This document shows, piece by piece, positions 3,201 through 18,164 of a DNA stretch of 64,000 nt (positions are counted from its first letter, which is position 1; each line of letters opens with the position of its first letter). Both the position numbers and the translations under genes were made by a program. A model generated the notes under the pieces. It was not told the DNA's origin. It did not search any database and worked only from the letters and a program-made list of their open reading frames with translations. The DNA comes from Desulfosudaceae bacterium (lineage in GTDB: Bacteria > Desulfobacterota > Desulfobacteria > Desulfobacterales > Desulfosudaceae): contig CAXXDV010000003.1 of the NCBI GenBank assembly GCA_963674745.2, positions 2,080,001 through 2,144,000 on the forward strand, written 5' to 3'.

Positions 3201-3745
3201 TTGCCATGACGGCCCATGCCATGGACGGTGACCGCGACAAATGCCTTAAAGCAGGCATGGATGACTTTCTGGTCAAACCCATTCAGCCGAATGAATTAGC
3301 AAAAATGCTGAACCGGTGGCTAAGCATAAATCTGACAGAGCGGGAAACGGATGCGAGGCCTGCAGCTGGTTTGACAGAAGAAAAGGATTTCGGCTATGAT
3401 GAGAAAAATATTTTTGACGCTGATGATCTGCTCGGAAGACTCATGACGGACAAAGATTCGTGCCGTCCCATTGTCGCAGGTTTTCTGGCCGATATATCTA
3501 CCTATGTCCTGGCCCTCAAAAATTTTTTGCGCAGCGGCGACGCGCATTCCGTGCAGTATCAGGCCCATACCATCAAAGGGGCGGCAGCTAATGTCAGTTG
3601 CTACCGCCTCAAAAAAACAGCCCATGAAATGGAGGAAGCCGGTGAAGCCGGTAATCTTGAAAAAGCGGCCTCACTCCTGCCCGGGCTGGAAGAAGAGATT
3701 GCGCTTATAAGAAAGGTTATGAAACAGACCGGGTGGATAGAATAA
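293..3745 (+). CDS. Hybrid sensor histidine kinase (TM-CHASE4-like periplasmic domain-TM-HAMP-PAS-HisKA-HATPase-REC-REC-Hpt)
   Basis: Two TM segments; HAMP (RKDEIGDLSRAL); PAS (YISPS...GITRDISERK); H-box FLANMSHEIRTPLNG; G-boxes DTGIGI and GGTGLGL; receivers IALIDFVMP and LILMDCQMP; Hpt AHTIKGAAAN. Confidence 0.93.
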   Translation: MTVKKKTFLIVFLAVMGAWLIYIAVFKFIVLKNFAALERNEAERTIQLCLTLIDLEKEHIERYLHDRSVCNDSYNFVVDRNQQYIDSNLAPAIFSCQKLNLIHYYNNDGILVWGKAYDLKGKKEIPFDLKKELKPSLFSRLFIKNHSEAFTGGVGHTSLGPMLIMAHPILPTSGAGPVRGTLVMGRLLTTDYISSLTRMTGVKLESWSIKDEHTPAAISALVASWESAAPSKIEYASSELLRVYSIIRDLEDQPVIILQASLPRSIMTRGVRVYRISIIFMLAAGLFAIIIIPWIAGFLIVNSITRLTKNAMAIEISSNNQTVFETNRKDEIGDLSRALARMVGHLSKSEELYRILAENARDVIWAFDLNLNYTYISPSVMQLRGYTPEEAMAHRFEQILTPASLEYAMEIIAKELELELNGHLHGPNWSTTAELEMMCKDGSTVWTEIASSFYYDKEGKPKGIMGITRDISERKQVELELRRAEQLAEQASQAKSQFLANMSHEIRTPLNGVISMTDLLLDTPLNVEQQKFAKIVKSSGKALLALISDILDFSKIEANKLDLETIEFDLRNVLEDIQEILSTKVNAKGLELDWTIDPEVPSWLEGDPGRLRQIILNLADNAVKFTASGGIFLRAALESEEDSQVTIRFLITDTGIGIQKDRITELFQPFVQEDSSTTRRFGGTGLGLSISKQLSELMGGQIGAESEKNKGSTFWFTACFKKQAEDNILFEEALQDLEGIRVLIVDDDDTSLIQVTKLVQSWGCRFDTASDGEAALSLLKGAGHDQDPYAIALIDFVMPGMDGMGLGKRIKGDPGLMKTSLILMTSVGQRGDAAELKRIGFSGYLIKPFRKTQLRKCLEMVLGRTTDKTHRYAGELVTRHVIKESLKKKIRILVVEDNSTNRVVALTILNKLGFKADSVDDGQEAIERIQQHPYDLILMDCQMPEMDGYEATRHIRNQQTGITRPTVPIIAMTAHAMDGDRDKCLKAGMDDFLVKPIQPNELAKMLNRWLSINLTERETDARPAAGLTEEKDFGYDEKNIFDADDLLGRLMTDKDSCRPIVAGFLADISTYVLALKNFLRSGDAHSVQYQAHTIKGAAANVSCYRLKKTAHEMEEAGEAGNLEKAASLLPGLEEEIALIRKVMKQTGWIE

Positions 3746-3798
3746 AAAAGGTATAAGCTGAGAACAGAACGTATAGCCATCACTTGAGGAGGTTAAAC

Positions 3799-4191
3799 AT
3801 GAAAACCCTTATCGTGGAAGATGATTTTACAAGTCGGTTGATACTGCAGCAGATTTTCAGCCCTTATGGTGAGTGCCATATGGCCATGAACGGGAAAGAA
3901 GCAATCGATGCGTTCATCATAGCGACCAAGGAAGGCGCACCTTACAACCTTATCTGCCTGGACCTTATGATGCCTGAAATGAATGGCCGGGATGCACTGA
4001 AGCGAATCCGTAAACTGGAAAATGAATTTGGAATAAAAGAAAGTGACGAAGTAAAGATACTTATGTTGTCGATGATGAAAGATTCCCAGCGGGTTGACGA
4101 CATCTGTAGAGAAGGTGCCACGGCCTATATGGTCAAACCCATAGTTAAAGAATTGTTGCTAAAACATCTAACCGACTTTGGACTGCCATAA
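3799..4191 (+). CDS. Single-domain response regulator (CheY-like receiver)
   Basis: LIVEDD...ICLDLMMP...YMVKP motifs; GAGGAGG RBS before the ATG at 3799. Confidence 0.9.
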   Translation: MKTLIVEDDFTSRLILQQIFSPYGECHMAMNGKEAIDAFIIATKEGAPYNLICLDLMMPEMNGRDALKRIRKLENEFGIKESDEVKILMLSMMKDSQRVDDICREGATAYMVKPIVKELLLKHLTDFGLP

Positions 4192-4306
4192 ACGCAAGTC
4201 GTTCCGGGCTCTCGAATGGCGGTCTTTATCTGGTAGCTTATGATATTGTGGGGATGATTTTCAGGAATTGTGCTCATGACTGAAGCTCAACGGGAGAGGC
4301 GGCATC

Positions 4307-4585
4307 ATGTCAAAAAAGCTGGAAACCATGACGGTCGAAGAATTAATGGCTGAGGCGGATAAACTGATCCGGCAACTCGATTCTGAAATAATCAATGACC
4401 TGGAAGAGACACATCGTTCCAAGCTGGAAGAACACGCTCAGAACTTAAAGAATATTAAAGCCGGGACTCAGGATAAAACCGGTAAACAAAAAACGTCCGA
4501 GACAGGTTCCGTAGCGGAAGGCATGCACGAGGCGATCCTGGACATTGTAAAAGCCTTTCAGGAATTTGATATCGATGTTTCCTGA
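4307..4585 (+). CDS. Small helical hypothetical protein
   Basis: 92-aa ORF with GGAGAGG RBS and charged helical composition. Confidence 0.65.
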   Translation: MSKKLETMTVEELMAEADKLIRQLDSEIINDLEETHRSKLEEHAQNLKNIKAGTQDKTGKQKTSETGSVAEGMHEAILDIVKAFQEFDIDVS

Positions 4586-4607
4586 ACAAAAAATCCGGAC
4601 ACGTTTT

Positions 4608-6206
4608 TTAACCGTCCAATTTTTTCTGGGCGCCCTGTAATCCGGCAATCCGCCCCAGTGTCCAGACAATCCGTTCAAAAACACCGGTCAATTCCAGGAG
4701 CATAGCCCGATCCGACGCGGACAGGTCATCCTGACGGCTGATATAGGCCGCCCTGATGGACTGGATGACATCTCCCTTGTTGCCTGTAAGATGAATAAAA
4801 TTTTCCGCATCCGTCAAATCGCCTGAAGTTTCCGTCTCACAAAGGGTATTCAGCAGAAAATCAAGACTCTGAACAAAAGAATCCTCAAAAGTCTTTCTGA
4901 GGCTGCCGGACCATTGCCGGCAGAGTTGGTTGAACTGATAAAGCAGCGCCTCAAGCCCCTCCATCAGCTTCTGTTTGTTCTGCAGTATCATTAACAGGTC
5001 CACCCCTGAATGAGATAAAGGCTGCCGGACCAGTTCTTCGATCTGAGCATTTATTTCTCCGGAAACAGTTTTAAAAGAGCCGTTGAGAGCGTCCAGGGTT
5101 CCCGCCTGATCAGGAGCCGGTTCCAGAAGCATGGCCGGGTATCGGGGCATTCGGCACATCAGGCGGGCCTGTTCTTTGACCAGAAGGCCGAGGTGAAGCT
5201 CAGGTGCGCCGCCGAAGTCATCCCTTAAAAACGCCGTGCGTGACCATTCTTCTTCCTGAGTGGCCGGCCAGAATCGCGCCAGAGCTCCGACAAAAGGCAT
5301 CAGCGCCAATGACATGACGACGGCGCCGCCCCAGTTAAAAACCAGAAAAACCATGGCCGCTTTCTGCTCCAGCGGCAGGTGGAGATGAAGGATCAAAGCA
5401 TGAACCAGGGGCAGGCCGGCAAACAATTCCAGATAAAATAAAAGCACAAAAACTGCCCCGGTAATCAGGTTAAAAAAAACCTGGGACATGATCAACTGCT
5501 TGGGCGTTCCCCTGATCGTCATGCCGAGCAGCCAGGTTACCGCACCTGATCCGACATTAGTGCCGTAAATAATCATCATGGTCTGTTCAAGGCTGAACAC
5601 GCCCACCTGGGCCAGGGCGATGGCCAGAATCGACACGGCCGTGGAGGACTGACACAACCCGGTCAACAAAGCACCGATCAGAAAAGAATAAAGATAGGAC
5701 GACTGGTGCGACATAAGCATGGTCTTGAACCAGGGCATGGCGGCCAGAGGCTCGGCACCGGCCCGGAGCATAATCAACCCGTAAAACAGCATGGAGCCCC
5801 CGAAAAGCGCCTGTGAAACCAGGGCCATCCGCCGGGGACGTTTAAATGCAAAAGAAAGGCCGGAAACACCGAGAATAAAAAGCACCGCCAGTTTGATGTT
5901 CAGCACAGCCAGTACAATCATGATACCGGCGCCGGCGTTGGCCCAGAAAATAAGCAGTATGCCGCGTTGTACAGGCAGCAGTCCGGCGCTCACAAGGCTG
6001 CCGGTGATAAAAGACAGAGCGGGCATGGACTGGGATAAAAATCCGGCCATAAAACCCGCCAGGCCCGTGCGCAGGGCTGTTCCCAGCCACCGTGCGAATT
6101 GCATACGGAAACGGCGGCCGGCCATTTGTTTCAGGCCCGAACTGAGCAGGAACAATCCGACGAAAAAGACCCCGATGCCACCGATGAGACTGCCTATGGC
6201 CTCCAC
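4608..6206 (-). CDS. Na/Pi-cotransporter family protein with PhoU-like C-terminal helical domain
   Basis: Repeated QS(S/M)...ANxG/GTNVG motifs in a multi-TM N-terminal region; soluble helical C-terminus. Confidence 0.85.
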   Translation of the reverse strand: MEAIGSLIGGIGVFFVGLFLLSSGLKQMAGRRFRMQFARWLGTALRTGLAGFMAGFLSQSMPALSFITGSLVSAGLLPVQRGILLIFWANAGAGIMIVLAVLNIKLAVLFILGVSGLSFAFKRPRRMALVSQALFGGSMLFYGLIMLRAGAEPLAAMPWFKTMLMSHQSSYLYSFLIGALLTGLCQSSTAVSILAIALAQVGVFSLEQTMMIIYGTNVGSGAVTWLLGMTIRGTPKQLIMSQVFFNLITGAVFVLLFYLELFAGLPLVHALILHLHLPLEQKAAMVFLVFNWGGAVVMSLALMPFVGALARFWPATQEEEWSRTAFLRDDFGGAPELHLGLLVKEQARLMCRMPRYPAMLLEPAPDQAGTLDALNGSFKTVSGEINAQIEELVRQPLSHSGVDLLMILQNKQKLMEGLEALLYQFNQLCRQWSGSLRKTFEDSFVQSLDFLLNTLCETETSGDLTDAENFIHLTGNKGDVIQSIRAAYISRQDDLSASDRAMLLELTGVFERIVWTLGRIAGLQGAQKKLDG

Positions 6207-6332
6207 TTTTCCCTCACCTTCTGATCAGCATACACATTACGAAATCCTTTTTAAATATGCCGAATAATTTTTTGGATTCAATAATCAAGGCGGATCCGGA
6301 CAATCGCCCCGACCGTTTCGTTATCCCCTTTC

Positions 6333-7145
6333 TCAGTAATACTGACGCTCCAGGACCACGGCCACGGATTCGTCAAAAAGTTCCCGCTTCTGTACCCGGT
6401 CGAAAGTGGCCATCAGGTCGGGTACCCGGACCCGGCGTTTTCGCTCGTGCTGATAATCTTCCACAATCGTGCCCCGGTTCATCATGATAATACGATCGGG
6501 CAGGTCAACGGCCTGCTGCATGGAGTGGGTCACCATGAGGGCGGTGAGTTTTTCCAGGTCAATGATGGCTTTTGTCAGCTCGGCCACCTTGGCGGCGCTT
6601 TTGGGATCAAGTGCGGCCGTATGTTCGTCCAGGAGCAACAGTTTGGGGCGTGTCCACACGGCCATGAGCAGGGTCAGTGCCTGACGCTGGCCGCCTGAAA
6701 GGGTGCCGATGGGATTGTCCAACCGGTCTTCCAGCCCCATTTTCAAAGTACTTACCCGGTCCGCCACTTCTTCCCGAAACGAACGGGTTACCGCCCGGCG
6801 AAGTGATCGGCGCTGCCCGCGTTTCATGGCAATGGCAATGTTTTCCGCTATGGTCATGTCCGGGGCGGTTCCCGCAAACGGGTCCTGAAAGACCCGTCCG
6901 ACAAGGGCGGCCCGTTTATATTCAGGCCAGGCGGTGATGTTTTGACCATCCAGGTGAATATTGCCGCTGTCCACGAAGAATGTTCCGGCCACGGCATTGA
7001 GCAGGGTGCTCTTACCGGAGCCGTTGGTGCCGATAATCCCGGTAAAGCTGCCGTCCTGTATGGTCACATGAACGCCGCGCAAAGCCCGGACTTCGTTGAC
7101 CGTATGAGCATGAAAGGTCTTAAAAACCGACTCAATTTTCAACAT
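6333..7145 (-). CDS. ABC transporter ATP-binding protein
   Basis: Walker A GTNGSGKST, signature LSGGQRQ, Walker B LLLLDEHTAALDP. Confidence 0.93.
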   Translation of the reverse strand: MLKIESVFKTFHAHTVNEVRALRGVHVTIQDGSFTGIIGTNGSGKSTLLNAVAGTFFVDSGNIHLDGQNITAWPEYKRAALVGRVFQDPFAGTAPDMTIAENIAIAMKRGQRRSLRRAVTRSFREEVADRVSTLKMGLEDRLDNPIGTLSGGQRQALTLLMAVWTRPKLLLLDEHTAALDPKSAAKVAELTKAIIDLEKLTALMVTHSMQQAVDLPDRIIMMNRGTIVEDYQHERKRRVRVPDLMATFDRVQKRELFDESVAVVLERQYY

Positions 7146-8079
7146 AACGGTGTTCTCCTTTCATCAATCTGCCCAGAGACCCGAACCACGACGGCGCAAC
7201 CAGGGCGGCGAAAACAAAGACCGCCGTGACCAGCTTGAGGTCATTGGGATTCAGTCCCCAGCGAAGGGCAATGGCAATCAGCAACCGGAACAGAATGGTG
7301 CCCAGAATAACGCCGGTGATGGTCAGCCCCAGACCGGCACGACCGACCAGCGCTTCGCCGATGATAATACTGGCCAGGCCCCATACCATCATGCCGATAC
7401 CCATCTGAACATCCGCGAACCCCTGGTATTGGGCCAGAAGCGAACCGGCCATGGCCACCAGGGCGTTGGCCATGGCCAGGCTGAAAACGATCATGGTCTG
7501 GTTGTTAACGCCCTGCGCACGCACCATCTGGGGGTTGCTGCCGGCTGCCCTGAGGGCGGTGCCGGTGTGTGTAAACAGAAAAACACACAGGATAGCGGCG
7601 ACCCCGACAGCCGTCAAACCGCTGGTCGCAAAAACCGCCATATCACCCGGCGGTACCTGCCAGCCCAGGATGTCGATCCGCGAAACGTTGGCGGTGATTT
7701 TTGTCAGCAGATTTTCCATACCGGTGGAAATGGTGGTCACATCCAGCAAAGGGATATTGCTTCTTCCCATGACCCGGAGGTTGATGGAGTACAGGGCCGT
7801 CATGACCAGAATCCCGGACAGGATCTCCTGAATCTTGAAACGGGTGTAAAGAATACCGGTAACCGCCCCGGCCAGGGCGCCGCCTAGGATAGAAACCAGA
7901 ATCGCCAGCCAGGGAGAATACCCCTGAACGATCAGAACGGCTGAAATGGACGCGCCCAGGGTGATGGAACCGTCGACCGTAATATCCGTAAACCGGATCA
8001 TCCGGAAACTGATGAACATGCCCAGGGACAGCAAGGAAAGAATCAGCCCCATGGTAAAGGCCCCGATGACCAGACTCAT
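7132..8079 (-). CDS. ABC transporter permease (BPD_transp_2-like)
   Basis: Multi-TM; DITVDGS, LYSINLRVMG, QYQGFADVQMGIG motifs. Start chosen at the ATGA overlap with the upstream gene. Confidence 0.9.
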   Translation of the reverse strand: MSLVIGAFTMGLILSLLSLGMFISFRMIRFTDITVDGSITLGASISAVLIVQGYSPWLAILVSILGGALAGAVTGILYTRFKIQEILSGILVMTALYSINLRVMGRSNIPLLDVTTISTGMENLLTKITANVSRIDILGWQVPPGDMAVFATSGLTAVGVAAILCVFLFTHTGTALRAAGSNPQMVRAQGVNNQTMIVFSLAMANALVAMAGSLLAQYQGFADVQMGIGMMVWGLASIIIGEALVGRAGLGLTITGVILGTILFRLLIAIALRWGLNPNDLKLVTAVFVFAALVAPSWFGSLGRLMKGEHRYVEN

Positions 8080-9293
8080 GACAGCACCTCCGGATTCTCT
8101 ATTGGTCCGCACCAGCAGGCCCCGCGGACCAGCGCGCTCTCACCCAATCCGACCACGGGCCGGTCATCATCGGTCAGATGCATGACCGCCAGTGGCGGCG
8201 GGCCGTTAAAAAATTTTTCCGTAACCGCGGCCAGTTCGATTTTTCCATTGGGCAGGGGCTGGTATGGGAAAACCGCGGCGTGAATATGGGCGGCCCGATC
8301 CGGGACAGCCGGTGTCGACAGCAGCAAAAGACCGCTGCCGGCCGAAACGATCCCCACCAGCATTGCCTGCTGGTGGGCAAATGACCGTTCGCCGCAGAAC
8401 GTCAGCCATTCGCGGATTTCAGGGAAAACGATTTTTCTGTCTTCCCCGAGGCGCCCCGGGGATTGGATCAGGGCCGTTCCGACCAGCCCTTCAACTTCAC
8501 CCCAGATAACAAAACCGGCCGCCCGGCCGCCTGTTTGTTTCAGAACAAGCCCCAGCAGATCGGAAACCGGATAAAAAGGGGTTGAGTCCGTTGGGGCAAA
8601 CCGGATCAAATGGCCCGGGTCCCCGGCCCAGTTCAATGCCTGGACACACTGCATCCGGGGCAGGAACTGTTTTTCAGCAATAAGATAATCCGGCGGCGCC
8701 TGTTCATCCGGGGGCTGGTAAACGACATTTCCGGCTACGGCCAGAAACTCGCCAAAATGGTCCCGGGCGTCCTCAAACGTTCCTGCCGCACTGCCGATAC
8801 CCAGACCATAGCTATTCCGGGCAAAGGTGCGGGCCGCCACCTGCTCCTGAACGACACCCTGCCAGGGTTGCCAGCAGGCCGGCTTATCAACGGTCAACAG
8901 TGCATTCTCATCAAATGCATAGTACTGAACGCCTGTATGCCCGGCCACCCCGCCTGCGCCGGCATGCCCGGTGTCCGGCATATCATCCGGGGTGCCCTTT
9001 TCCAGCCACATATCAAAGCCGGAAGTGCTCAGGGTCTGCTCCACAAAAGCGGTGGGATTGACGATGCGAAAATCGCCGGAGACCGTTTTGAGCTCTTTGA
9101 ACACCTGCAGAAGGGCACGTATGCCGGCTGAACTCAAAAAAGACGTTTTGGCGGCGTCAAGCACCAGGTGGTGCCGGCCCTTACGGATCTGAAGCATAAG
9201 CGTATCCGTGAAATAATCGGCCCAGGCGGCGTCCAGCCGTCCCTCGGCCCTGATCAGCAGGTATTTTCCCCGTTGTTCACAATCGATCTTCAT
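8076..9293 (-). CDS. STAS (anti-anti-sigma-like) domain fused to an uncharacterised ~300-aa domain
   Basis: N-terminal EGRLDAA...LVLD...FLSSAGIR STAS motif; C-terminal domain carries an HIH motif. Confidence 0.8.
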   Translation of the reverse strand: MKIDCEQRGKYLLIRAEGRLDAAWADYFTDTLMLQIRKGRHHLVLDAAKTSFLSSAGIRALLQVFKELKTVSGDFRIVNPTAFVEQTLSTSGFDMWLEKGTPDDMPDTGHAGAGGVAGHTGVQYYAFDENALLTVDKPACWQPWQGVVQEQVAARTFARNSYGLGIGSAAGTFEDARDHFGEFLAVAGNVVYQPPDEQAPPDYLIAEKQFLPRMQCVQALNWAGDPGHLIRFAPTDSTPFYPVSDLLGLVLKQTGGRAAGFVIWGEVEGLVGTALIQSPGRLGEDRKIVFPEIREWLTFCGERSFAHQQAMLVGIVSAGSGLLLLSTPAVPDRAAHIHAAVFPYQPLPNGKIELAAVTEKFFNGPPPLAVMHLTDDDRPVVGLGESALVRGACWCGPIENPEVLS

Positions 9294-9308
9294 GATTTAT
9301 CCTGTCTG

Positions 9309-11297
9309 TTATTCCGGCTTATAAATGGTCGCCTTTTTCATCAGCTCTTCTGAAATCCGCAGGTTATAGTGTCTTGCCAGTTTTAGATTGAGCAACAATT
9401 TCTCTGATTGGGTGTTACTGAATGGAATGTCTTTCGGATTCTCTCCGCGCAGGACACGCAAAGCTTTCTGCGCCGCTTCCAACCCGGCGTCATAATAATC
9501 CCGGGCCAGGCAGACAACGCCACCGTCTTTCATCTGGGCACTGTCAAACACAAAAACAGGCAGATTGTTTTCCGCGGCTTTTCTGGCAATCAAGGCGAAC
9601 CCGGGCCGGGTCAGGTTGTCTACCACCTGAGCGACCACCTGAATATCCTTGCCGCAGAGCTCGATGGCCGATTGGGCCACATCGGCACTGGCGGTGACCG
9701 GTACGGTCACGAGTTCCATGCCCTGGTCCACCAGGGCTTCTTTAAACCAGTCCTTGTAAAGCACGCTGTTAATTTCCGCCGGGGTAAACAGGGTCCCCAC
9801 CCGGCGGGTATCCGGAAGGGTCTGTCTGATTATCCGGGCCATGCCGTCAAAAGGGGAGCGGGTGCTGATACCGGTAACATTGGGCAGATGATCGGTCTCG
9901 CTTGTTCCCGCCCCGGCCCTGACACCGTCTCCGACACCGGTGAATACGATTCGGGTGTCTTCACCGGCCTGGCGCAGGGCCGCCTGAAGGGTCGGCGTGG
10001 AGACCACCATGAGCAGGTCTACCCTGTCCGACCGGACGGTGGTCATGATACTTGACAGGGTGGACATATCACCCTGGGCATTATAGCTTTTGAGTTCGTA
10101 ATCCCTGCCCTCCTTTAAACCGGCCTTGTTTATGCCGTCAATCAACCCTTCTTTGCATCGTTCCGCGAATTCTGTTTCGCTGTAAAGGACAATCCGCAGC
10201 TTAAAAGGGGCTGTCGGTTGTGAAACGGATCGGGGTTCGGGTCTGGGGGGACTTTCTTTTGCCGTTCCTTTCTGAGCGCCCAGCATGTTTTCGATGGCCG
10301 TCGTCATTTTCCAGGAACCTTTAAGGGAGGCCAGCACACTTCGATTCACAGCCAGTTGTTCCGGGACCACGTTATCAATACGGATGGTCGACGGTTTTTG
10401 CCCTCCCAGAATTGCCGCGGCGATATCCGCAGTATACAGGCCCACGGTAAAATAATCGGCCCCCAGGCCGAACAGGGCGCCCTTTTCCGTATCCGTGGGA
10501 TCGTTTGAAAAAACCGGAATTTCGGCATCACCGGCCAGATTAATGATAAGATTAATGGCTGAAATGGCCACATTATCCCCCCCGACCCAGACGGCATCCA
10601 CGTTTTTCGCGATAACCGAACGCAGGGCTTCCGGCACCTCGGAGGTGTTGCCGGCGTTGGCCTCGATCAGTTCAATCCCCAGCGCGTTACATGCTTTGCG
10701 GGCTTTCTTCAAGCAGGCTTCCGAGCATTGTTCTCCGGGGTTCCAGACCACACCCAGCCGCTGGAGTGCCGGATTCATTTCACGGGCTATCTCGATGGTA
10801 CGTTCTACCGGCTGGAATGTGCCTACCCCGGCCATATATGGGGGATGCTGGTCCGGTTCCGGACCGCTGATGCCCACACCGGCACCGTAAGGATCGGTGA
10901 CCGTCCCGAAAACATGATGTTTTTGAATGGTCATATTGGCCTTGGAAACCACCTGCAGGGCCACCGTACTGGACGTGATCAGCAGATCATAAGGGCTGTT
11001 GACCATGTCACGGGCCATGGCATTGGCGGTGGCGTAATCCCCCTGGGGATTGTAAATCCGGATGTTGCTCCCGTCCGGCGCCCGAAAGCCTTTTTCTTCC
11101 AGGCGGGTGACCACACCGGCGATATGGGAATCCAGCAGTGTTGACGAGGCAATCTGCATTACGGCAACGGACGGATATGCCCCGGTCTTCTCATTTTTAT
11201 GGCCGTCCCTTTGCTCCAGGTCCGACATTAACAAAATAAGGGATGCCGCCAGGATCAAGCCCACGGCCGGACCCAGGTGTTTGATAATGTTTTTCAT
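9309..11297 (-). CDS. ABC transporter substrate-binding protein with two tandem ABC_sub_bind domains
   Basis: N-terminal TM/signal; two homologous halves (NPQGD/NAQGD, VFGTVTDP/VFTGVGDG, DYFTVG/DYYDAG). Confidence 0.88.
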   Translation of the reverse strand: MKNIIKHLGPAVGLILAASLILLMSDLEQRDGHKNEKTGAYPSVAVMQIASSTLLDSHIAGVVTRLEEKGFRAPDGSNIRIYNPQGDYATANAMARDMVNSPYDLLITSSTVALQVVSKANMTIQKHHVFGTVTDPYGAGVGISGPEPDQHPPYMAGVGTFQPVERTIEIAREMNPALQRLGVVWNPGEQCSEACLKKARKACNALGIELIEANAGNTSEVPEALRSVIAKNVDAVWVGGDNVAISAINLIINLAGDAEIPVFSNDPTDTEKGALFGLGADYFTVGLYTADIAAAILGGQKPSTIRIDNVVPEQLAVNRSVLASLKGSWKMTTAIENMLGAQKGTAKESPPRPEPRSVSQPTAPFKLRIVLYSETEFAERCKEGLIDGINKAGLKEGRDYELKSYNAQGDMSTLSSIMTTVRSDRVDLLMVVSTPTLQAALRQAGEDTRIVFTGVGDGVRAGAGTSETDHLPNVTGISTRSPFDGMARIIRQTLPDTRRVGTLFTPAEINSVLYKDWFKEALVDQGMELVTVPVTASADVAQSAIELCGKDIQVVAQVVDNLTRPGFALIARKAAENNLPVFVFDSAQMKDGGVVCLARDYYDAGLEAAQKALRVLRGENPKDIPFSNTQSEKLLLNLKLARHYNLRISEELMKKATIYKPE

Positions 11298-11503
11298 ATT
11301 TTCAGACTCGACTTATTTTCCGGTTTGATATTTTTCAGGCCATCTCTATGTTGTCCGGTATCCGCATTTTTAAAGGCTATGGCCCCGCTTTCATGGCAGC
11401 GTACAATAAAAGGGATTTTATTTTCCTGCCAATGGGTAATGGCCAGGCTCTGATCTCTGTGACAGTGGGGCAGCAGCATCAAGACCAGCGGCATCCCGGG
11501 CCC

Positions 11504-13462
11504 TTATCCGCCCGAATAACGGATCATCATCATGGTAATATCATCCGACTGGGGCGCGCCGGCTGAAAAGCGCTCTACGGCATCCATGACGTTCCCTATC
11601 GATGCCTGGATTTCCGCATCTTTGCAACCCGACAGCACATCGGCCAGCCGCTCTTCCGAGAACAATTCGTCGGCAGGGTTCATCGCCTCGGTCACGCCGT
11701 CGGTATACAGAAACAGGCTGTCTCCATGTGAAAGGGAGATTCGCTCACAGCCGTACTCCACGTCCTCCATGGCGCCGGCTACGAGTGATCCGGCCCGGGG
11801 CAACCACTCCACCGATCCGCTCTGTTTAACCAGCAGCGGCGGATTATGCCCGGCGTTGGCATACAGAATTTCACCGCTTGTCATGTCCAGCAGGCCGCAG
11901 AACAGCGTAACAAACATACAGGCGTCGTTTTCAGCGGCCAACTCCTTGTTGACATGATTCAGAATCACCTCCGGCGAGACATCATCTCTGGCGAATGATT
12001 TAATCAGCGTCTTGGTAACGGCCATGAACAAAGCCGCCGGAACGCCTTTTCCGGAAACGTCACCGATCACAAAGCAAAGGCGGTTTTCGCCCAGCTGAAA
12101 AAAATCATAAAAATCTCCGCCGACCTCCCTGGCCGGTGTAATCATGGCGTAAAGGTCAAACTCATCGCGGGTGGGGAACGGCGGGAATGTCTTGGGCAGA
12201 ATCGACATCTGAATATCATGGGCAATTTCCAGTTCACTTTCCATCCGTTCCCTGGCGGCGGTTGTCTCCGTTAACTGCCGGATATAATCCTTCAGGGAAT
12301 CCTTCATGATCTGGAAGTCCCGGGTCAGTGCGCCCACTTCATCTTTTGACTGTGGCTCCGGAAGATCGGCCTCAAAATCACCGGCCGCGATTTTATCCGA
12401 CGCCTCCGCCAGCGCCCGGACCGGCCTGCTGATAGAACCTGAGATATAGACCACCACCATGGCCAGAAGGAAGATACCGGCCAGGCTCATGCCGGCCATG
12501 ATCAACGTAAGATGGCGAATATCCGCCAGAAGCTCATCCCTGGGGAAAACAACGGCCAGCGTCCACCCCATTTGCGGCAGCGGCATGTAATACATCCAGC
12601 TGGGGACCCCGTCAAGGGTTTCAAACGAGATGAATCCGGTTTCGCCGGCGGCCATCCGGCGGCCGATATCCCGCAGATTGGAGTCCTGCCGTTCTTCAGC
12701 GATACTGAACAAAGATTCGTTCATAACGATGTCCTGCCGGGGATGGGCCAGAAAGACACCGTTTCTTGACAGCAGGCAGCCATATCCCGTCTTCAGGACC
12801 CGGATTGAAGACACAATATTGGTCAGATGTTCAAGCGAGATATCGGCCGTCACGATCCCGGCAAAGCGCTTCCGGTTGTCATGTTCTTCAAAAAAAGGGA
12901 CTGAATAGGTCGACATGAGAATGTTGCCGCCGCCTTCATCATAATAGGGCTCACTCCATACGCTCTTTTTCAATTCCCGGGGAATATGAAACCAGTCCTG
13001 CAGAACATAATTGTAACTGTCCGCTAAATCGACGAAGCCTAGACCTTCCGGAATCTTATAGAAATACGGCGCATAAGGGGTGGGAAACCGGCTGTCTTCG
13101 TATGGTTCGAAAGCGACCGTGGACCCGAATACATCGGGATGGGAAAGGACAGTGGTTTGAATAAAATCAAGCAGCTGGGGGTCGTTAAAAGGCAATGTTT
13201 CCAAGGCCCGGGCCATGCCTTCGGTTGCGGCCGTGACCGAAGCGATCGGCGTAGCGACCTTCCCTGCAGCCGCCGTCACGACATTCCGGGCCTGGACCTC
13301 CATCCTGGAAATGATCATTTTCCGGGCCTGGTAATAGTTATATCCCAGCGTGAACCCGAAAATCAGGATACTGAAAACGGAAAAAAGAATGCTCAACCGA
13401 ACGGATAAACGATGACGCCACTTTATCCCGGTGTTTTCTAAACCATGGTCAGCGCTGGACAT
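11504..13462 (-). CDS. Cache-HAMP-SpoIIE (PP2C, RsbU-like) membrane phosphatase
   Basis: dCache-like W..PYYDEGGG region, HAMP (KDEVGAL), PP2C motifs VGGDFYD, IGDVSGKG, YTDGVTEA, SDDIT. Start approximate (track start 13504). Confidence 0.92.
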   Translation of the reverse strand: MSSADHGLENTGIKWRHRLSVRLSILFSVFSILIFGFTLGYNYYQARKMIISRMEVQARNVVTAAAGKVATPIASVTAATEGMARALETLPFNDPQLLDFIQTTVLSHPDVFGSTVAFEPYEDSRFPTPYAPYFYKIPEGLGFVDLADSYNYVLQDWFHIPRELKKSVWSEPYYDEGGGNILMSTYSVPFFEEHDNRKRFAGIVTADISLEHLTNIVSSIRVLKTGYGCLLSRNGVFLAHPRQDIVMNESLFSIAEERQDSNLRDIGRRMAAGETGFISFETLDGVPSWMYYMPLPQMGWTLAVVFPRDELLADIRHLTLIMAGMSLAGIFLLAMVVVYISGSISRPVRALAEASDKIAAGDFEADLPEPQSKDEVGALTRDFQIMKDSLKDYIRQLTETTAARERMESELEIAHDIQMSILPKTFPPFPTRDEFDLYAMITPAREVGGDFYDFFQLGENRLCFVIGDVSGKGVPAALFMAVTKTLIKSFARDDVSPEVILNHVNKELAAENDACMFVTLFCGLLDMTSGEILYANAGHNPPLLVKQSGSVEWLPRAGSLVAGAMEDVEYGCERISLSHGDSLFLYTDGVTEAMNPADELFSEERLADVLSGCKDAEIQASIGNVMDAVERFSAGAPQSDDITMMMIRYSGG

Positions 13463-14456
13463 GTATTGCTCCGGTAAACTGGTCATAATCGGGTATTTCT
13501 TCAATCAGGCCGGTCTGAAAAAGAAAAAGCGAGACCGAGTCAAAATCCGATTTTTTCAATCGGCCGTTATCATCGGCATCCAGAACCGGCATAATAAGGT
13601 CCCGCATCCTGGACAGCATCCATTTCTGATGCGTCCGGTTGGCACATATTTTGGCTTCTCGCATGTGCCGGATAACAACATCCAGCGCTTCATCCGGGTG
13701 CTCAAACGCGTATCGCCACCCTTCCAGCGAGGCCTTGACGCAGGCCTCCGCCAGGGCCGGATTTTCTTTGAATGCCGATTCAAGCATGTAAATACCGTCT
13801 TCCGGAAAATTCAGGCCGTAATCGGACATGGAAAACACGTTCAGTTCTTCGGGATTTATGCCGGTATTCAGAATGGTGTGATATTCATTGTACCACATGG
13901 CCGAAGCCACATCCACGCCGTCTCGCAGAAAAAGATTGACGGTATAAGATTGAGGCACTTCTTTTACATGGAGCCCGTATTTCCAGAAAAACGCCCGGGG
14001 CGGGATGGCCAGGTCACCACCCCAGAGGCTCACTTTTTTAGCGTTCATGTCCGATGGTTGCCGTATATTCCGGGATTTTTTGGCCACCAGCATCATGGCG
14101 GAGCGAGGGATGACCTGGCCTGCATGCACCAGTCGAAGCCCTTCACCATACTGACGAATAGCTGTTGTCAGCCACAGGACAGCAAAATCAGCCCGGCCGT
14201 TTTCCAGATATTCGCAACCGGAGAAGGCGGGGCCGCCCTTCAAAATGGTCATATTAAGGCCGTGATTCCGGTAAAAGCCCTTTTCCCGTGCCATGTAATA
14301 ACCGGCAAACTGCGCCTGGGGGCTCCACAGCGGAAGCATGCTGCAGGACGTCAGGTTGTCCTCACATCTTGTATTCAGTGGAAGAAACAGGGCGACAATC
14401 AGGATCACCAGCAAGGAAACAGGGCTGCCGTTGTTTACAAACCCGGGATTCCTCAT
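13449..14456 (-). CDS. NMT1/THI5-like periplasmic substrate-binding protein
   Basis: Signal peptide; W.PQAQFAGYY.A.EKGFY motif; SLEGWRYA. Confidence 0.88.
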   Translation of the reverse strand: MRNPGFVNNGSPVSLLVILIVALFLPLNTRCEDNLTSCSMLPLWSPQAQFAGYYMAREKGFYRNHGLNMTILKGGPAFSGCEYLENGRADFAVLWLTTAIRQYGEGLRLVHAGQVIPRSAMMLVAKKSRNIRQPSDMNAKKVSLWGGDLAIPPRAFFWKYGLHVKEVPQSYTVNLFLRDGVDVASAMWYNEYHTILNTGINPEELNVFSMSDYGLNFPEDGIYMLESAFKENPALAEACVKASLEGWRYAFEHPDEALDVVIRHMREAKICANRTHQKWMLSRMRDLIMPVLDADDNGRLKKSDFDSVSLFLFQTGLIEEIPDYDQFTGAIHVQR

Positions 14457-14887
14457 GAAGAAACCTTTCCATCATGTATTTTAACCGTGAGACGGAGAAC
14501 GTTCCAGTTGTTTTCCCTGTGCCAGTCGACACGATCCGTGAAATTCCGTATAAAATGAACGCCCAGCCCGCCGATGGGTCTTTCTTCAAACGGAATGGTA
14601 AGATCCGGCTCCGGGACCGAGAGCGGGTTAAATTCCGGTCCTGTATCCCTGATTTCCAGAACGAATGTTTCGGTGCCGGGAAAGCCGGCCAGCGCCACTT
14701 CCCCCCGGCCGCCCTTTAAAGCGTAGCTGCAAATATTGACAAACGCCTCTTCAACGGCCAGGCAGAGACCGGAGATCTTTTCGGGCGGAACACCCGCCTG
14801 CCCGGCACTGGTTTCAACAAACGCCATGACATCTTTCAGGCGGTCCAGGGATGAAGAGAGCTTTATGGTTAAAGGTGACAGGGTCAT
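14453..14887 (-). CDS. RsbW/SpoIIAB-like anti-sigma Ser/Thr kinase (HATPase_c_2)
   Basis: LAVEEAFVNI, IRDTGPEFNP, GGLGVHFI boxes. Confidence 0.92.
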   Translation of the reverse strand: MTLSPLTIKLSSSLDRLKDVMAFVETSAGQAGVPPEKISGLCLAVEEAFVNICSYALKGGRGEVALAGFPGTETFVLEIRDTGPEFNPLSVPEPDLTIPFEERPIGGLGVHFIRNFTDRVDWHRENNWNVLRLTVKIHDGKVSS

Positions 14888-15222
14888 CAGCCTTCTGCTT
14901 TCACGGCTGTTTCCACAGAACCGTAAATATCAAACACGGAACCGAAACCTGAAATATCAAAAACCTCTTTGACCGGCCCACGGGGACCGGCCAGGAGCAT
15001 CTTACCGTTCTTCCCCTTGAGGGCCTTGGCGGATGCCAGAATGACCCGCAACCCCGCGCTGCTGATATATTCGACTCCACCCAGGTCCAGAACCAGCTTC
15101 AGCCGCCCTTTGTCGATCAGATCGGTAAGGGATGATTCAAAAGCCGGTGCCGTCATGGCATCAATTTTCCCTGAAGCAGATACCACCATTATTTCGCCTT
15201 CCTGTTTTATCTGGATATTCAA
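14887..15222 (-). CDS. STAS anti-sigma factor antagonist (RsbV/SpoIIAA-like)
   Basis: GKIDA...LVLDLGGVEYISSAGLR...VFDISG; TTG start. Confidence 0.92.
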   Translation of the reverse strand: MNIQIKQEGEIMVVSASGKIDAMTAPAFESSLTDLIDKGRLKLVLDLGGVEYISSAGLRVILASAKALKGKNGKMLLAGPRGPVKEVFDISGFGSVFDIYGSVETAVKAEG

Positions 15223-15526
15223 TTTCTTTTCCCCTGTTTTTAAAAAGACATGGATTGTTTTATCCGACTATTTCATGATCTTTTTTTTGCGATCACAACC
15301 AAACCTGTTCCCGCAGACGCTCAAAAATCAGGTGTTCAGGCCTGATGAATCATAAACCACCATACAAATGAGTATTCTTTTTAAAATACTGAAATAAATC
15401 ATACTTGTCAATCAGCCCGGATATTTCATGAAATTTTTGATTAATATTTTTTCAGACTTGTTCAAAGTTTCGGGTCACCCCGTCATTATGATAAAGACGG
15501 GTTGTGATTTTTGATCGACAAAACAA

Positions 15527-15554
15527 TTGACATTCTTCAGGCCTCAGCTAAACT
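15527..15554 (+). promoter_or_regulatory. Putative sigma70 promoter for the exporter operon
   Basis: TTGACA-16 nt-TAAACT upstream of the ATG at 15653. Confidence 0.5.
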
Positions 15555-15652
15555 TACAAGATCAATCTCTTGCTCATCCTCTAAAAACGGATAGTTATTA
15601 TATTAATGATATTACCGGCAGCGGTAAAAATCGGCTTCATCGGAAACGGTAT

Positions 15653-17446
15653 ATGAATCAGGGGCGATTGATCTATCAGAATATTCTCCAGAACATGAGC
15701 GACGGCGTCCTGACGATCGGCATGGATGGACGGGTGATGACCCTGAATAATGCCGGTGAACAGATTCTGGACATTCGTGCCGAAGAGTGCATCGGCCGCC
15801 CTTATGGTGAGGTGTTCTTTCTAAGAGAAGGAAATGATAATTTCAACCAGCTGATTCTGGATGCCGTTTACGAGTCGACGGTCACCCACAACCGGACCGT
15901 GAAATTTGATACCGGCAACGGTATCAAGACCCTGCGGGTTTCGACTTCTTTTCTCAAACCCGACCATAATGATCAGGAAACTGCCGTCATCGTTGTCATT
16001 AATGACGTTTCAGAACTTGAACGCACGCATCAGGCAGAACGCGATCTGACTGAAGAGTTAAAGCAGAAGCACGGGGAGTTGCGCGATTCCTATCTCCAGC
16101 TTGAAGAGGCGAATGCCGACATGGCCGCCCTTTTGAAAAAAGTCCAGGTCATTCGCATCGCGGCCACGGCTTTCATCCTGGTGCTTTTTCTGGGTATCGG
16201 TATTTTCACCTGGCTGAGGACCGGTGTTCATTCTCAGAATATGTCCGCTACGGGACAACAGCATGTCGACGCAACGGCATCGCAGGCCTATACGGTTTCT
16301 TACCGCCCATTATCCGACAGCATCTCTTTAAAAAGCATGATCAAGCCGATACGGGTGGTCAACGTTACCTGCCCGTTTACCGGGTCTATTGAAAAAGTAT
16401 TTTTCGAATACGGCCAGGCTGTAGAAAAAGGACAGATTCTGCTGCGGATGGACAAAAAAGAGGCGGAAATGCAGTATCGGGAAGCCTATGCAGCGGCCAT
16501 CAAGGCGGAGGAAAAATTCCGGGACTTCCAGAACTGGGAACAGAATGATCAGGTGGTCAAGGCCCGGCGCTCACTGGCCAGGTCAAAAATGAGCCTGAAC
16601 AATTATAAAAAAGTTTTTGAAGAGACGGAGTACCTGTTCAAAAAAGGCCTTATTCCGGAAAAGGAATACGAAAATGCCGGGCAGATGCATGAGAATGCCA
16701 AGCTTGATTACGAAGCCGCCTCACATGAACTGAACATTGTCCGGGCGAACGGTACAGGCAACAACTATGAAATCGCCAGGCTGGAAATGGAAAATGCCAA
16801 AGCCAAGCTGGCGGAATACGAGCAGCAGTTGAATCTGGCCGACGTCGTCGCACCGGTGGCCGGCACCGTCATGATCGGAGAAAGTGCCGGTAAAAAGGAC
16901 GCCGGTGCCCGGATTGTCAATGGCGCGCCGGTATCCGAAGGAGATATCCTTGTATCCGTGGGCGATACCAGCGGTTTATCGGTGGAAGTCGATGTGGACG
17001 AAATCGAGGTACGTAAAATTCATCAGGGCCAGACGGCACGAATTACAGGAGAAGCGTTTCCAGGCATCACGTTAAACGGGCGGGTCGCCAATGTGTCCAC
17101 CCAGGCCAATATTTCTTCAGGCCATTACCAGCGCCCCACTTTCGGCGTCCTCATCGTCATCGAAGACATCACCCCTGAAGTACGCCAGCAGATCCGCCTG
17201 GGAATTACCGCAAATGTGGTTATTGTCGTCTACAACAAGCCGGAGGCGATCCTGGTCCCCATCCAGGCAGTGATAATGGAAGGTAATGACCGGTTCGTGA
17301 TGCTGAGAGACAAGGCCACCGGCGCCATCAAGAAAGTCCGGGTAAAGACCGGTGTAACGACCCTCGATTCCGTTGAAATTTTAAGCGGTGTAGAAGCCGG
17401 CGATGAATTGATCATCAGTCAAGGGGTGGGATTTGCTGGCACTTGA
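15653..17446 (+). CDS. PAS-domain-fused membrane fusion (MacA/HlyD-like periplasmic adaptor) protein
   Basis: N-terminal PAS (ILQNMSDGVLTI..G.V...NNAGEQIL), coiled coil, single TM, lipoyl/hairpin/barrel motifs (CPFTGSI, VAPVAGTV, VDEIEV), C-terminal VKTG...VEILSGVEAGD. Confidence 0.88.
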   Translation: MNQGRLIYQNILQNMSDGVLTIGMDGRVMTLNNAGEQILDIRAEECIGRPYGEVFFLREGNDNFNQLILDAVYESTVTHNRTVKFDTGNGIKTLRVSTSFLKPDHNDQETAVIVVINDVSELERTHQAERDLTEELKQKHGELRDSYLQLEEANADMAALLKKVQVIRIAATAFILVLFLGIGIFTWLRTGVHSQNMSATGQQHVDATASQAYTVSYRPLSDSISLKSMIKPIRVVNVTCPFTGSIEKVFFEYGQAVEKGQILLRMDKKEAEMQYREAYAAAIKAEEKFRDFQNWEQNDQVVKARRSLARSKMSLNNYKKVFEETEYLFKKGLIPEKEYENAGQMHENAKLDYEAASHELNIVRANGTGNNYEIARLEMENAKAKLAEYEQQLNLADVVAPVAGTVMIGESAGKKDAGARIVNGAPVSEGDILVSVGDTSGLSVEVDVDEIEVRKIHQGQTARITGEAFPGITLNGRVANVSTQANISSGHYQRPTFGVLIVIEDITPEVRQQIRLGITANVVIVVYNKPEAILVPIQAVIMEGNDRFVMLRDKATGAIKKVRVKTGVTTLDSVEILSGVEAGDELIISQGVGFAGT

Positions 17447-18098
17447 GAACATCATAAAAAAATACACCATCGGCCCCACTGAACTGACCGCATTAAAAGG
17501 CATTTCCCTGGAAATCAAAGAGGGGGAACTGGTATCCGTCATCGGTCCTTCCGGGTGCGGCAAATCCACACTGATGAATATCCTCGGTCTCCTTGACCAA
17601 CCGACTTCCGGGACCTATCGCATCAGCGGCAGACAGGTTGGTTACGGTGATGACCGGGTATTATCCACCCTGAGGAATCAGCAAATCGGTTTTATTTTCC
17701 AGATGTATTATCTTCTACCGCGTCTGAACGCGATAGAAAATGTCACGCTTCCGCTGATATACAGAAAAGCCGGCAGACCGGCAGCCCGGCAGCAGGCCCT
17801 GGAATACCTCAAAAAAGTCGACATGGAAAGCCGGGCCTATCACCGTCCGGATGAGCTGTCGGGCGGACAGCAGCAGCGGGTTTCCATTGCCCGCGCCCTG
17901 GTCGGAAGGCCGGCCATTCTACTGGCGGATGAACCGACCGGCGCCCTTGATACACGGACCGGCCAGGAAATCATGAACCTGTTTAAACTATTAAATGAAC
18001 AAGAGGGAATCACCATCGTCATTATCACCCATGACCCGAAAATTGCCGCCCAGTGCCAGCGTAGTATCCAATTGCTCGACGGGCAGATTTATGAATAA
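17433..18098 (+). CDS. MacB/LolD-type ABC ATP-binding protein
   Basis: GPSGCGKSTLMNILG, LSGGQQQRV, LADEPTGALD. Confidence 0.93.
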   Translation: MLALENIIKKYTIGPTELTALKGISLEIKEGELVSVIGPSGCGKSTLMNILGLLDQPTSGTYRISGRQVGYGDDRVLSTLRNQQIGFIFQMYYLLPRLNAIENVTLPLIYRKAGRPAARQQALEYLKKVDMESRAYHRPDELSGGQQQRVSIARALVGRPAILLADEPTGALDTRTGQEIMNLFKLLNEQEGITIVIITHDPKIAAQCQRSIQLLDGQIYE

Positions 18099-18164
18099 TC
18101 GGCCTTGCGTCTTCCAGCGGGCCTTTTTGCGCACCGGCATCCGGCAAAAACCTGAACAGAGATT

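Follow-up and report, generated by a model that had tools for sequence, protein, structure and literature searches.

A STAS fusion protein in an ABC importer operon as the candidate output of a sigma-less partner-switching module

What does a partner-switching module act on when no sigma factor is encoded with it? The question is raised by a gene cluster of a Desulfosudaceae bacterium (Desulfobacterota; GenBank assembly GCA_963674745.2, contig CAXXDV010000003.1), in which a serine kinase, a PP2C phosphatase and two STAS proteins are encoded in one run with an ATP-binding cassette (ABC) importer. The cluster lies at positions 4608 to 15222 of the window, by which we mean the whole stretch of 64,000 nucleotides (nt) that was analysed (contig positions 2,080,001 to 2,144,000 of the forward strand). 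We consider it probable, at roughly 0.6, that the module is a sigma-less phospho-switch ending at an accessory protein of the importer, a fusion of a STAS domain to a C-terminal domain of 286 amino acids (aa). The basis that we observed consists of the domains of the proteins, the layout of the operon, the conservation of the importer core, the repeated linkage of signalling genes to it, the conservation of the phosphosite and the fold of the C-terminal domain; every biochemical step of the switch is one that we infer.

The window proteins were identified with Pfam and NCBIfam. An earlier note, made from the sequence alone, had described nine consecutive open reading frames (ORFs) on the minus strand with several overlapping junctions, and all nine were found at its coordinates. 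They are given here in the direction of transcription, together with two promoter-like sites, which as matches to a consensus do not speak for function, and the gap between the signalling and the transporter genes.

15383..15411, minus strand: promoter-like site 5′ of the small STAS gene and candidate operon promoter (consensus scan, TTGACA-17-TATTTT, 10/12 matches)
14887..15222, minus strand: small single-domain STAS protein, 111 aa, TTG start, motif YISSAGL (Pfam STAS, E 6e-24)
14453..14887, minus strand: RsbW-like serine kinase, 144 aa, GHKL ATPase fold (Pfam HATPase_c_2, E 2e-23)
13449..14456, minus strand: NMT1/THI5-like periplasmic binding protein, 335 aa (Pfam NMT1, E 1e-34)
11504..13504, minus strand: membrane phosphatase of the SpoIIE family, ordered as transmembrane segment, dCache/PDC, transmembrane segment, HAMP and PP2C (Pfam SpoIIE, E 5e-53)
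11298..11503, minus strand: gap of 206 nt between the signalling genes and the transporter genes (from the coordinates)
11432-11403, minus strand: promoter-like site within this gap (consensus scan, 9/12 matches)
9309..11297, minus strand: membrane-anchored binding protein with two tandem ABC_sub_bind (PF04392) domains (Pfam, E 2.5e-90)
8076..9293, minus strand: STAS fusion, 405 aa, an N-terminal SpoIIAA-like STAS domain followed by the 286-aa C-domain (Pfam STAS, E 6e-16)
7132..8112, minus strand: ABC permease, BPD_transp_2 (Pfam, E 9e-29)
6333..7145, minus strand: ABC ATPase, 270 aa, with a conserved C-terminal tail of about 35 aa (Pfam ABC_tran, E 1e-28)
4608..6206, minus strand: Na/Pi symporter, Na_Pi_cotrans (Pfam, E 6e-30)

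By these coordinates five junctions overlap: small STAS/kinase (1 nt), kinase/NMT1 (4 nt), NMT1/phosphatase, STAS fusion/permease and permease/ATPase (14 nt). Gaps separate the phosphatase gene from the binding-protein gene (206 nt), the binding-protein gene from the STAS fusion gene (15 nt) and the ATPase gene from the Na/Pi gene (126 nt). The true start of the phosphatase is probably an ATG a few codons 3′ of the TTG, and that of the permease is probably the ATG at 8079, which gives a protein of 315 aa and an ATGA overlap with the stop codon of the fusion; permease homologues are 313-328 aa long.

The importer core and its STAS fusion

Related loci were collected in one scan of genome contigs, seeded partly with the pattern FLSSAGIR, and the nine window proteins served as phmmer and jackhmmer queries in labelling their ORFs. 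The resulting 78 loci come from Desulfobacterota, Bacteroidota, Neomarinimicrobiota, Kiritimatiellae/Verrucomicrobiota, Synergistota and Planctomycetota, as well as from unclassified metagenome-assembled genomes. The core, consisting of the binding protein, the STAS fusion, the permease and the ATPase, is found together in essentially all of them. The earlier note had placed the fusion gene between those of the binding protein and the permease, as the window coordinates confirm, and the same order recurs: the binding-protein gene lies directly 5′ of the fusion gene in 71 of the 72 loci with room for it (the exception is L047), and by script the permease follows 3′ of the fusion in 65/67 loci and the ATPase accompanies the core in 55/60. 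All seven permease and ATPase misses are artefacts of ORF calling, with the genes visible on the map. At L051 and L071 the fusion is split into two ORFs and the permease is present in the gene map, and the ATPase misses include L074, L076 and L078, where the ATPase is hidden inside a spurious long ORF.

The importer resembles TrpXYZ-type systems in its ABC_sub_bind, BPD_transp_2 and ATPase families, and TrpX is the best NCBIfam match of the window binding protein. This protein scores 302.7 bits over its two domains against the TrpX equivalog NF041285, below the cut-off of 390. The window-type importers differ from TrpXYZ in the extra STAS fusion gene between the binding-protein and permease genes, and their binding proteins carry 1 to 4 tandem domains. 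Mean column identity of the ATPase, tail included, is 80% across 35 sequences from several phyla, and that of the STAS fusion is 45-63%; the high conservation of the ATPase may reflect strong constraint or recent transfer between phyla.

As to what is imported, the parts of a published account used here give L-Trp, L-Tyr and L-Phe as the ligands of solved ABC_sub_bind proteins, and thiamine or pyrimidine precursors as those of NMT1 proteins (PMC10443332). An Rfam search of window positions 4000-16000 at E ≤1 found no regulatory RNA, riboswitch or T-box, its sole match being a chance one to XIST, and the region therefore offers no RNA clue to the substrate. At L012 (1643-3475) a tyrosine decarboxylase dependent on pyridoxal phosphate is encoded directly 5′ of a run of small STAS, binding protein, STAS fusion, permease and ATPase; this single locus fits an aromatic amino-acid substrate.

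In the fusion, Pfam places the STAS domain at residues 3-95, followed by about 300 aa without a family. A word-indexed search returned 266 relatives at E ≤0.001. The best 120 of these are nearly all 400-426 aa long (the five exceptions have 255, 325, 385 and, twice, 433 aa), and none bears a name more specific than 'STAS domain-containing protein' or 'anti-anti-sigma factor'. A C-domain profile, built from an alignment of 41 diverse sequences (A2), found 924 clusters at 50% identity. Among 150 of these clusters, 129 proteins have at least 380 aa and place the domain behind about 120 N-terminal residues, so that the C-domain appears to be essentially always fused to STAS; the remaining 21 have 201-342 aa and may be fragments.

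Does the STAS part of these proteins retain a site for phosphorylation? The 129 proteins were used here because they were picked by their C-domain, with no reference to the STAS part, and are the sole unbiased set. All of them (129/129) keep the SS phosphosite, 119 by a strict motif and 10 by eye. Ser55 of the window fusion (FLSSAGI) aligns with the first serine of DSSG in the SpoIIAA chain 1th8_B, and with an alanine in 1tid_B, the chain of the ATP complex; we take the aligned SpoIIAA serine to be the phosphorylated Ser58. A Foldseek search against the PDB laid the N-terminal domain of the fusion on SpoIIAA and RsbV with target-normalised template modelling (TM) scores of 0.74-0.89. The fusion domain also scores above the TIGR00377 cut-off of 53.45 bits (54.3 bits).

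The C-domain appears to be a new family with a fold like that of alpha-acetolactate decarboxylase (ALDC) and PTD012. The AlphaFold 2 model of the whole fusion has a mean predicted local distance difference test (pLDDT) score of 79.6, and that of the C-domain alone reaches a pLDDT of 94.2 and a predicted TM score of 0.93. The best Foldseek matches of the C-domain model in the PDB are alpha-acetolactate decarboxylases (5yho, 6j92, 4bt2/3, 1xv2, 6inb/c, 6j3d, 5xne) and human PTD012/C11orf54 (1xcr), with probability 1.00, E 2e-5 to 3e-3, TM scores of 0.40-0.58, root-mean-square deviations of 4-7 Å and 8-12% identity. Pfam gave no family match for any of the 41 C-domains at E ≤10 (0/41, with three single meaningless hits), the family profile retrieved STAS domains only from PDB sequences, and the C-domain found no usable match in the ESM Atlas. 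We do not claim sequence homology to ALDC, as hhalign gave a probability of 2.6% against the genuine ALDC encoded at L014 and of 1% against a 28-sequence ALDC alignment (A4).

In alignment A2, with full-length numbering, no sequence departs from E266, H338, D376 or R378, and H336, H372 and E302 are nearly invariant. Histidines of the HxH..H type are also conserved in ALDC (PF03306) and PTD012, in which we take them to be zinc ligands; in A4 the invariant ones are H198, H200 and H211. The third histidine follows after 34 residues in the C-domain, as against 11 in ALDC. We infer that the C-domain possibly binds a metal.

Signalling genes beside the importer

The small STAS protein matches TIGR00377 at E 5e-28 and 97.1 bits, well above the cut-off, and is 37% identical to the STAS domain of the fusion across 93 ungapped residues, which marks it by sequence as a paralogue of that domain. 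Given this identity without gaps, one kinase could plausibly take both STAS proteins. The HATPase_c_2 match of the kinase spans residues 11-134. Against the RsbW/SpoIIAB equivalogs the kinase stays far below the cut-offs, with 21.4 bits for NF003144 (cut-off 145) and 15.6 for TIGR01924 (cut-off 155), at E 1e-4.

The phosphatase matches MCP-like_PDC_1 (E 6e-27), HAMP (E 2.5e-14) and dCache_1 (E 6e-14) in addition to SpoIIE (PF07228), which covers residues 473-663 and profile positions 2-191 of 192. A GDVSGKG motif and a C-terminal DD motif can be read in its sequence and are presumably catalytic. Its similarity to the SiaA equivalog NF038263 lies in the architecture alone (78.8 bits against a cut-off of 700, E 3e-22). 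The NMT1 protein has an N-terminal hydrophobic segment and lacks a cognate permease, and we propose it as a putative co-sensor of the phosphatase.

Kinase and/or NMT1-PP2C orthologues stand beside the core in 28/78 loci from several phyla. With at least 3 kb available on both sides the count is 19/37, and with at least 5 kb it is 15/27. Kinase orthologues (27-59% identity) account for 22 loci and are fused to PP2C in two more, and in 16 loci at most 150 nt lie between the end of the kinase gene and the binding-protein gene that stands 3′ of it on the same strand. PP2C orthologues share 37-68% identity over about 95% of their length, sensor domain included, and NMT1 orthologues 38-66%. The NMT1 gene lies directly 5′ of the PP2C gene in 19 of the 21 loci that have the latter: in 17 by strict spacing, to which L014, with a long ORF call, and L060, with a fragmented NMT1 gene, were added. 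The two exceptions are L068, which is cut by the end of the locus, and L074, where the protein is a different one of 1473 aa. This repeated adjacency of the NMT1 and Cache-PP2C genes fits a binding protein that acts as a co-sensor. Small STAS genes accompany the module in 19/78 loci. A looser count of 34/78 loci with linked signalling genes was dropped, as it includes hits to a STAS-TCAD9 module (L063, L064) and a 553-aa HATPase protein (L047).

The linked genes occur in at least five arrangements. They lie 5′ of the transporter genes in the window and at L002, and 3′ of the ATPase gene at L006, L007, L010, L014 and L059. NMT1, PP2C and kinase genes are joined to the front of the transporter operon at L028, L029, L035, L052, L058, L060 and L062. 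Seven loci (L003, L013, L015, L020, L023, L025 and L061) have the kinase gene alone in front of the transporter genes, and two (L024 and L027) have kinase and small STAS genes there; at L039, L056, L057 and L071 the signalling genes are on the opposite strand. Fused forms also occur: Cache-PP2C and an RsbW-like kinase are joined in single proteins of 803-854 aa (L014, 14272-16836; L069, 1722-4133), and the Planctomycetota loci L074 and L078 encode STAS-kinase fusions of 474-570 aa. At L035, L052 and L058 the operon, which an unrelated gene precedes, runs from NMT1 through PP2C, kinase, binding protein, STAS fusion and permease to the ATPase. A small STAS gene is missing from it, and the fusion is therefore the sole candidate substrate of the kinase within these operons.

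How far, then, does the cluster hold together as a unit? This genomic check, which the earlier note had itself proposed, comes out largely in its favour. The core does so in essentially 78/78 loci and the signalling genes are linked to it in 28/78. The Na/Pi gene, which the earlier note had counted as a member, has a homologue in 1/78 (L022, more than 5 kb away from the core), and we place it outside the conserved unit because of this single recurrence; signalling genes are also lacking in 12/27 of the well-flanked loci.

That no sigma factor gene is present, as the note had remarked of the cluster, holds for the whole window: there is none among the 48 non-nested ORFs of at least 100 aa, in which no Sigma70 region was found. 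In the related loci, 72 neighbours less than 3 kb from signalling genes had received no label; the 54 of them that were scanned included no sigma factor either, and the other 18 belong to clusters of which representatives were scanned. A cognate sigma gene in the same locus, such as goes with RsbW or SpoIIAB, was absent from the window and from the scanned neighbours. The only sigma genes in related loci are of the extracytoplasmic function (ECF) type, several kb 5′ at the Bacteroidota loci L020, L053 and L068, where they sit within a PrsW/anti-sigma-like block. Overall, the interpretation given in the earlier note is partly supported.

What the switch may control

The mechanism that we favour starts from an importer in which the binding protein has several ABC_sub_bind domains, the permease is of the BPD_transp_2 family and, next to the ATPase, a cytoplasmic STAS fusion is always encoded. 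The RsbW-like kinase would phosphorylate Ser55 in the STAS domain of the fusion and also the small STAS paralogue, which, where present, would compete for the kinase or buffer it. Dephosphorylation would fall to the membrane PP2C once a trigger reaches its dCache domain outside the cytoplasm, and this trigger would probably be the orphan NMT1 protein loaded with its ligand. Depending on its phosphorylation state, the fusion would engage the transporter or not, by analogy with MlaB on MlaF, and/or its C-domain would act on the imported compound or bind it. The outcome would be a post-translational control of uptake, or of a first processing step, by an external signal.

MlaB and MlaF of the E. 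coli lipid transporter MlaFEDB are the closest analogue; there too a STAS protein is encoded with an ABC transporter. In the parts of the MlaFB study on which we draw, MlaB binds the ATPase MlaF with Thr52, the equivalent of the phosphosite, at the interface, the T52E exchange weakens this binding, and phosphoregulation is proposed with no kinase known (PMC7367683). MlaB is a minimal single-domain STAS protein with neither a known kinase nor a known phosphatase, and Mla is not a binding-protein-dependent importer. The window fusion, by contrast, has a SpoIIAA-like STAS domain, an additional domain of 286 aa and a gene-linked kinase and phosphatase, and is known here from its sequence.

A bolder version of the favoured mechanism, speculative and in our estimate unlikely, makes the fusion a phospho-switchable fifth subunit of the importer. 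When unphosphorylated, its Ser55 face would dock onto the ATPase, a domain resembling metal-dependent decarboxylases or hydrolases would convert the arriving substrate, and the orphan binding protein together with the Cache-PP2C would gate both. If true, uptake would be chemically coupled to first-step processing, and STAS-ABC regulation under a kinase and a phosphatase, which was only hypothesised in the MlaFB work, would have an example.

Several points weigh against a phospho-switch that ends at the importer. The sigma factor negative covers loci only, and a distant sigma partner would be compatible with it. Kinase and phosphatase genes are both missing nearby in the 12 of the 27 well-flanked loci mentioned above. 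L006 and L010 have NMT1-PP2C and a small STAS gene with no kinase within 8 kb; a 300-aa protein encoded 3′ of the small STAS gene at L006 was considered as a hidden kinase and rejected, being a secreted or anchored FQ-repeat protein. Within the 78 loci the phosphosite motif is kept in 78/78, a figure that we set aside because the partial seeding with FLSSAGIR biases it. The link to ALDC is one of fold only (hhalign 1%, Pfam 0/41). Finally, the fusion could be an input sensor instead of the output.

In that last case the transporter would be the input. The fusion would report transporter activity or a cytoplasmic compound through its C-domain, in the manner of RsbR/RsbS, and titrate the kinase, and the output would be the small STAS protein or a distant partner bound by the kinase, possibly a sigma factor. 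Two STAS proteins for one kinase are indeed what multi-tier Rsb systems have, the fold of the C-domain resembles small-molecule enzymes and could sense a ligand, small STAS genes stand alongside the module in 19 loci, and a survey made of loci leaves distant partners invisible. The kinase, phosphatase and fusion genes of L035, L052 and L058, however, come without a small STAS gene, and the seven further loci with a solitary kinase gene before the transporter carry nothing else of the module there; no SigB/SigF-type sigma factor was found in the window or the scanned neighbours, and the kinase matches RsbW equivalogs at E 1e-4 only. We regard the input reading as rather unlikely.

The fusion might instead serve mainly in metabolism, as a decarboxylase or hydrolase that depends on a metal and acts on what is imported; phosphorylation of the STAS domain would then switch catalysis, with no contact to the transporter. 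This would agree with acetolactate decarboxylases and the zinc protein PTD012 as best fold matches, with the invariance of H338, D376, R378 and E266 and near invariance of H336, H372 and E302 in 41 sequences, and with a gene inside the transporter operon. Yet no sequence profile ties the domain to ALDC (hhalign 1%, Pfam 0/41), the TM-scores of 0.42-0.58 are low, and a gene set between those of the binding protein and the permease, with an ATGA overlap, suggests stoichiometric co-production and not a free enzyme. A chiefly enzymatic role seems distinctly improbable to us.

We give hardly any weight to the notion that an ordinary importer and a generic partner-switching set, with no functional tie between them, are adjacent by chance or share no more than transcription. 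It is true that the 206-nt gap with its promoter-like site divides the two halves of the cluster, and that in 50/78 loci the available flanks contain neither a kinase nor a phosphatase orthologue. Against this, 28 loci from several phyla repeat the linkage in at least five different layouts, the genes of kinase and binding protein abut in 16 loci, PP2C and NMT1 are full-length orthologues at 37-68% identity, and the importer always encodes a STAS protein with an intact phosphosite.

Known systems, surrounding genes and significance

The phospho-switch that we favour builds on known kinds of regulation, namely partner switches with non-sigma outputs and STAS regulators of ABC transporters. With RsbU-RsbV-RsbW and SpoIIE-SpoIIAA-SpoIIAB of Bacillus it shares a PP2C phosphatase, a STAS protein with a conserved serine and a GHKL serine kinase. 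It differs from them in that no sigma gene was found in the window or the scanned neighbours, in a kinase that scores 21 bits against the RsbW cut-off of 145, and in its two STAS proteins, one of which is fused and encoded inside a transporter operon. Atypical partner switches are described in the cited parts of a review, among them SiaABCD and HsbR-HsbA (Pseudomonas), SypE-SypA (Vibrio fischeri), BtrUVW (Bordetella) and chlamydial RsbU/V/W, and the title of a reference cited there assigns a periplasmic sensor domain to chlamydial RsbU (PMC8256260). As far as these descriptions go, such systems resemble the window module in having non-canonical outputs and, for some, a membrane PP2C with periplasmic sensor domains. 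The outputs given are diguanylate cyclases, secretion, biofilm genes and sigma availability; an importer accessory protein as the target, and an orphan binding protein paired with the phosphatase, are features of the window that were not found among the systems so compared.

An orphan periplasmic binding protein encoded directly 5′ of a membrane signalling protein of the PAS/Cache type is the arrangement of LuxP-LuxQ, TorT-TorS and NspS-MbaA. The predicted output of the window receptor is a PP2C, unlike the histidine kinases and cyclic di-GMP enzymes of those pairs. The sensor domain of chlamydial RsbU is, we presume, Cache-like as well.

The cluster is flanked in the window by genes on the plus strand. 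On one side (293-4191) these encode a CHASE4-PAS hybrid histidine kinase with two receiver domains and an Hpt domain, and a single receiver protein; on the other (15527-19340) they encode a PAS-HlyD fusion and a MacB-type ABC exporter. Further on lie a PAS-GGDEF-EAL protein (20598-22349) and a 763-aa protein (58096-60387, plus strand) with repeated MopE-type putative metal-binding motifs (PF11617, three stretches, E 2e-27).

In the related loci, the PrsW-protease block recurs 5′ of the core at L013, L015, L020, L023, L035, L053, L058, L063, L064, L067 and L068, and 3′ of it at L006 and L010. It comprises a PrsW-family protease, the ECF sigma factor (L020, L053, L068), a 245-aa protein that is weakly anti-sigma-like, 1-4 copies of a 332-aa protein and a secreted protein of about 982 aa with a weak match to Peptidase_MA_2 (E 7e-5), the last in 15 loci. 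An NCBIfam search with six recurrent neighbours gave just the weak anti-sigma match of the 245-aa protein. A 136-aa protein is encoded 3′ of the ATPase gene in 8 loci; neither it nor any member of the PrsW block occurs in the window.

A second STAS module was seen on the opposite strand in Bacteroidota, at L013 (14296-19562) and also at L021, L026, L035, L039, L058, L063, L064 and L068. It encodes a 730-753-aa protein with STAS and TCAD9/APH-like parts, a HATPase_c_2 protein of about 495 aa and a small STAS protein, and its transporter consists of an ABC ATPase of 360 aa and a GlnP-like permease that carries two fused SBP_bac_3 domains. It may be another STAS/kinase set tied to an amino-acid importer. 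In two Bacteroidota loci (L039, 3918-4808; L056, 2777-3667) a GPP34 (Golgi phosphoprotein 3-like) protein is encoded beside the small STAS gene of the opposite-strand module. At L014 (16849-17622) the genuine ALDC (PF03306, E 1e-80) is encoded directly 3′ of the PP2C-kinase fusion gene, which is striking given the ALDC-like fold of the C-domain; this is a single locus and may be chance.

A full-text literature search, with subscription journals outside its reach, turned up no paper in which a STAS fusion belongs to the operon of a binding-protein-dependent importer and is linked to kinase and phosphatase genes. Its matches were MlaB papers and partner-switching reviews, and searches by COG and Pfam identifiers returned just general surveys. 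To our knowledge, post-translational control of ABC importers comes in few forms, namely inducer exclusion at MalK, PII proteins and trans-inhibition domains.

In its cited parts, the MlaFB study left open the phosphoregulation of STAS proteins that act on ABC ATPases (PMC7367683). The STAS fusion family is a natural test case for it: in at least six phyla the transporter operon has a STAS protein as a fixed member, the phosphosite of this protein is intact, and genes for a dedicated kinase, a phosphatase and a sensor outside the cytoplasm often stand beside the operon. The 286-aa domain family, with its 924 clusters, is placed in a functional context, and with it comes a binding protein whose pairing with a Cache phosphatase is conserved. 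If the importer is indeed where the phospho-switch ends, partner-switching modules would gain a new class of output.

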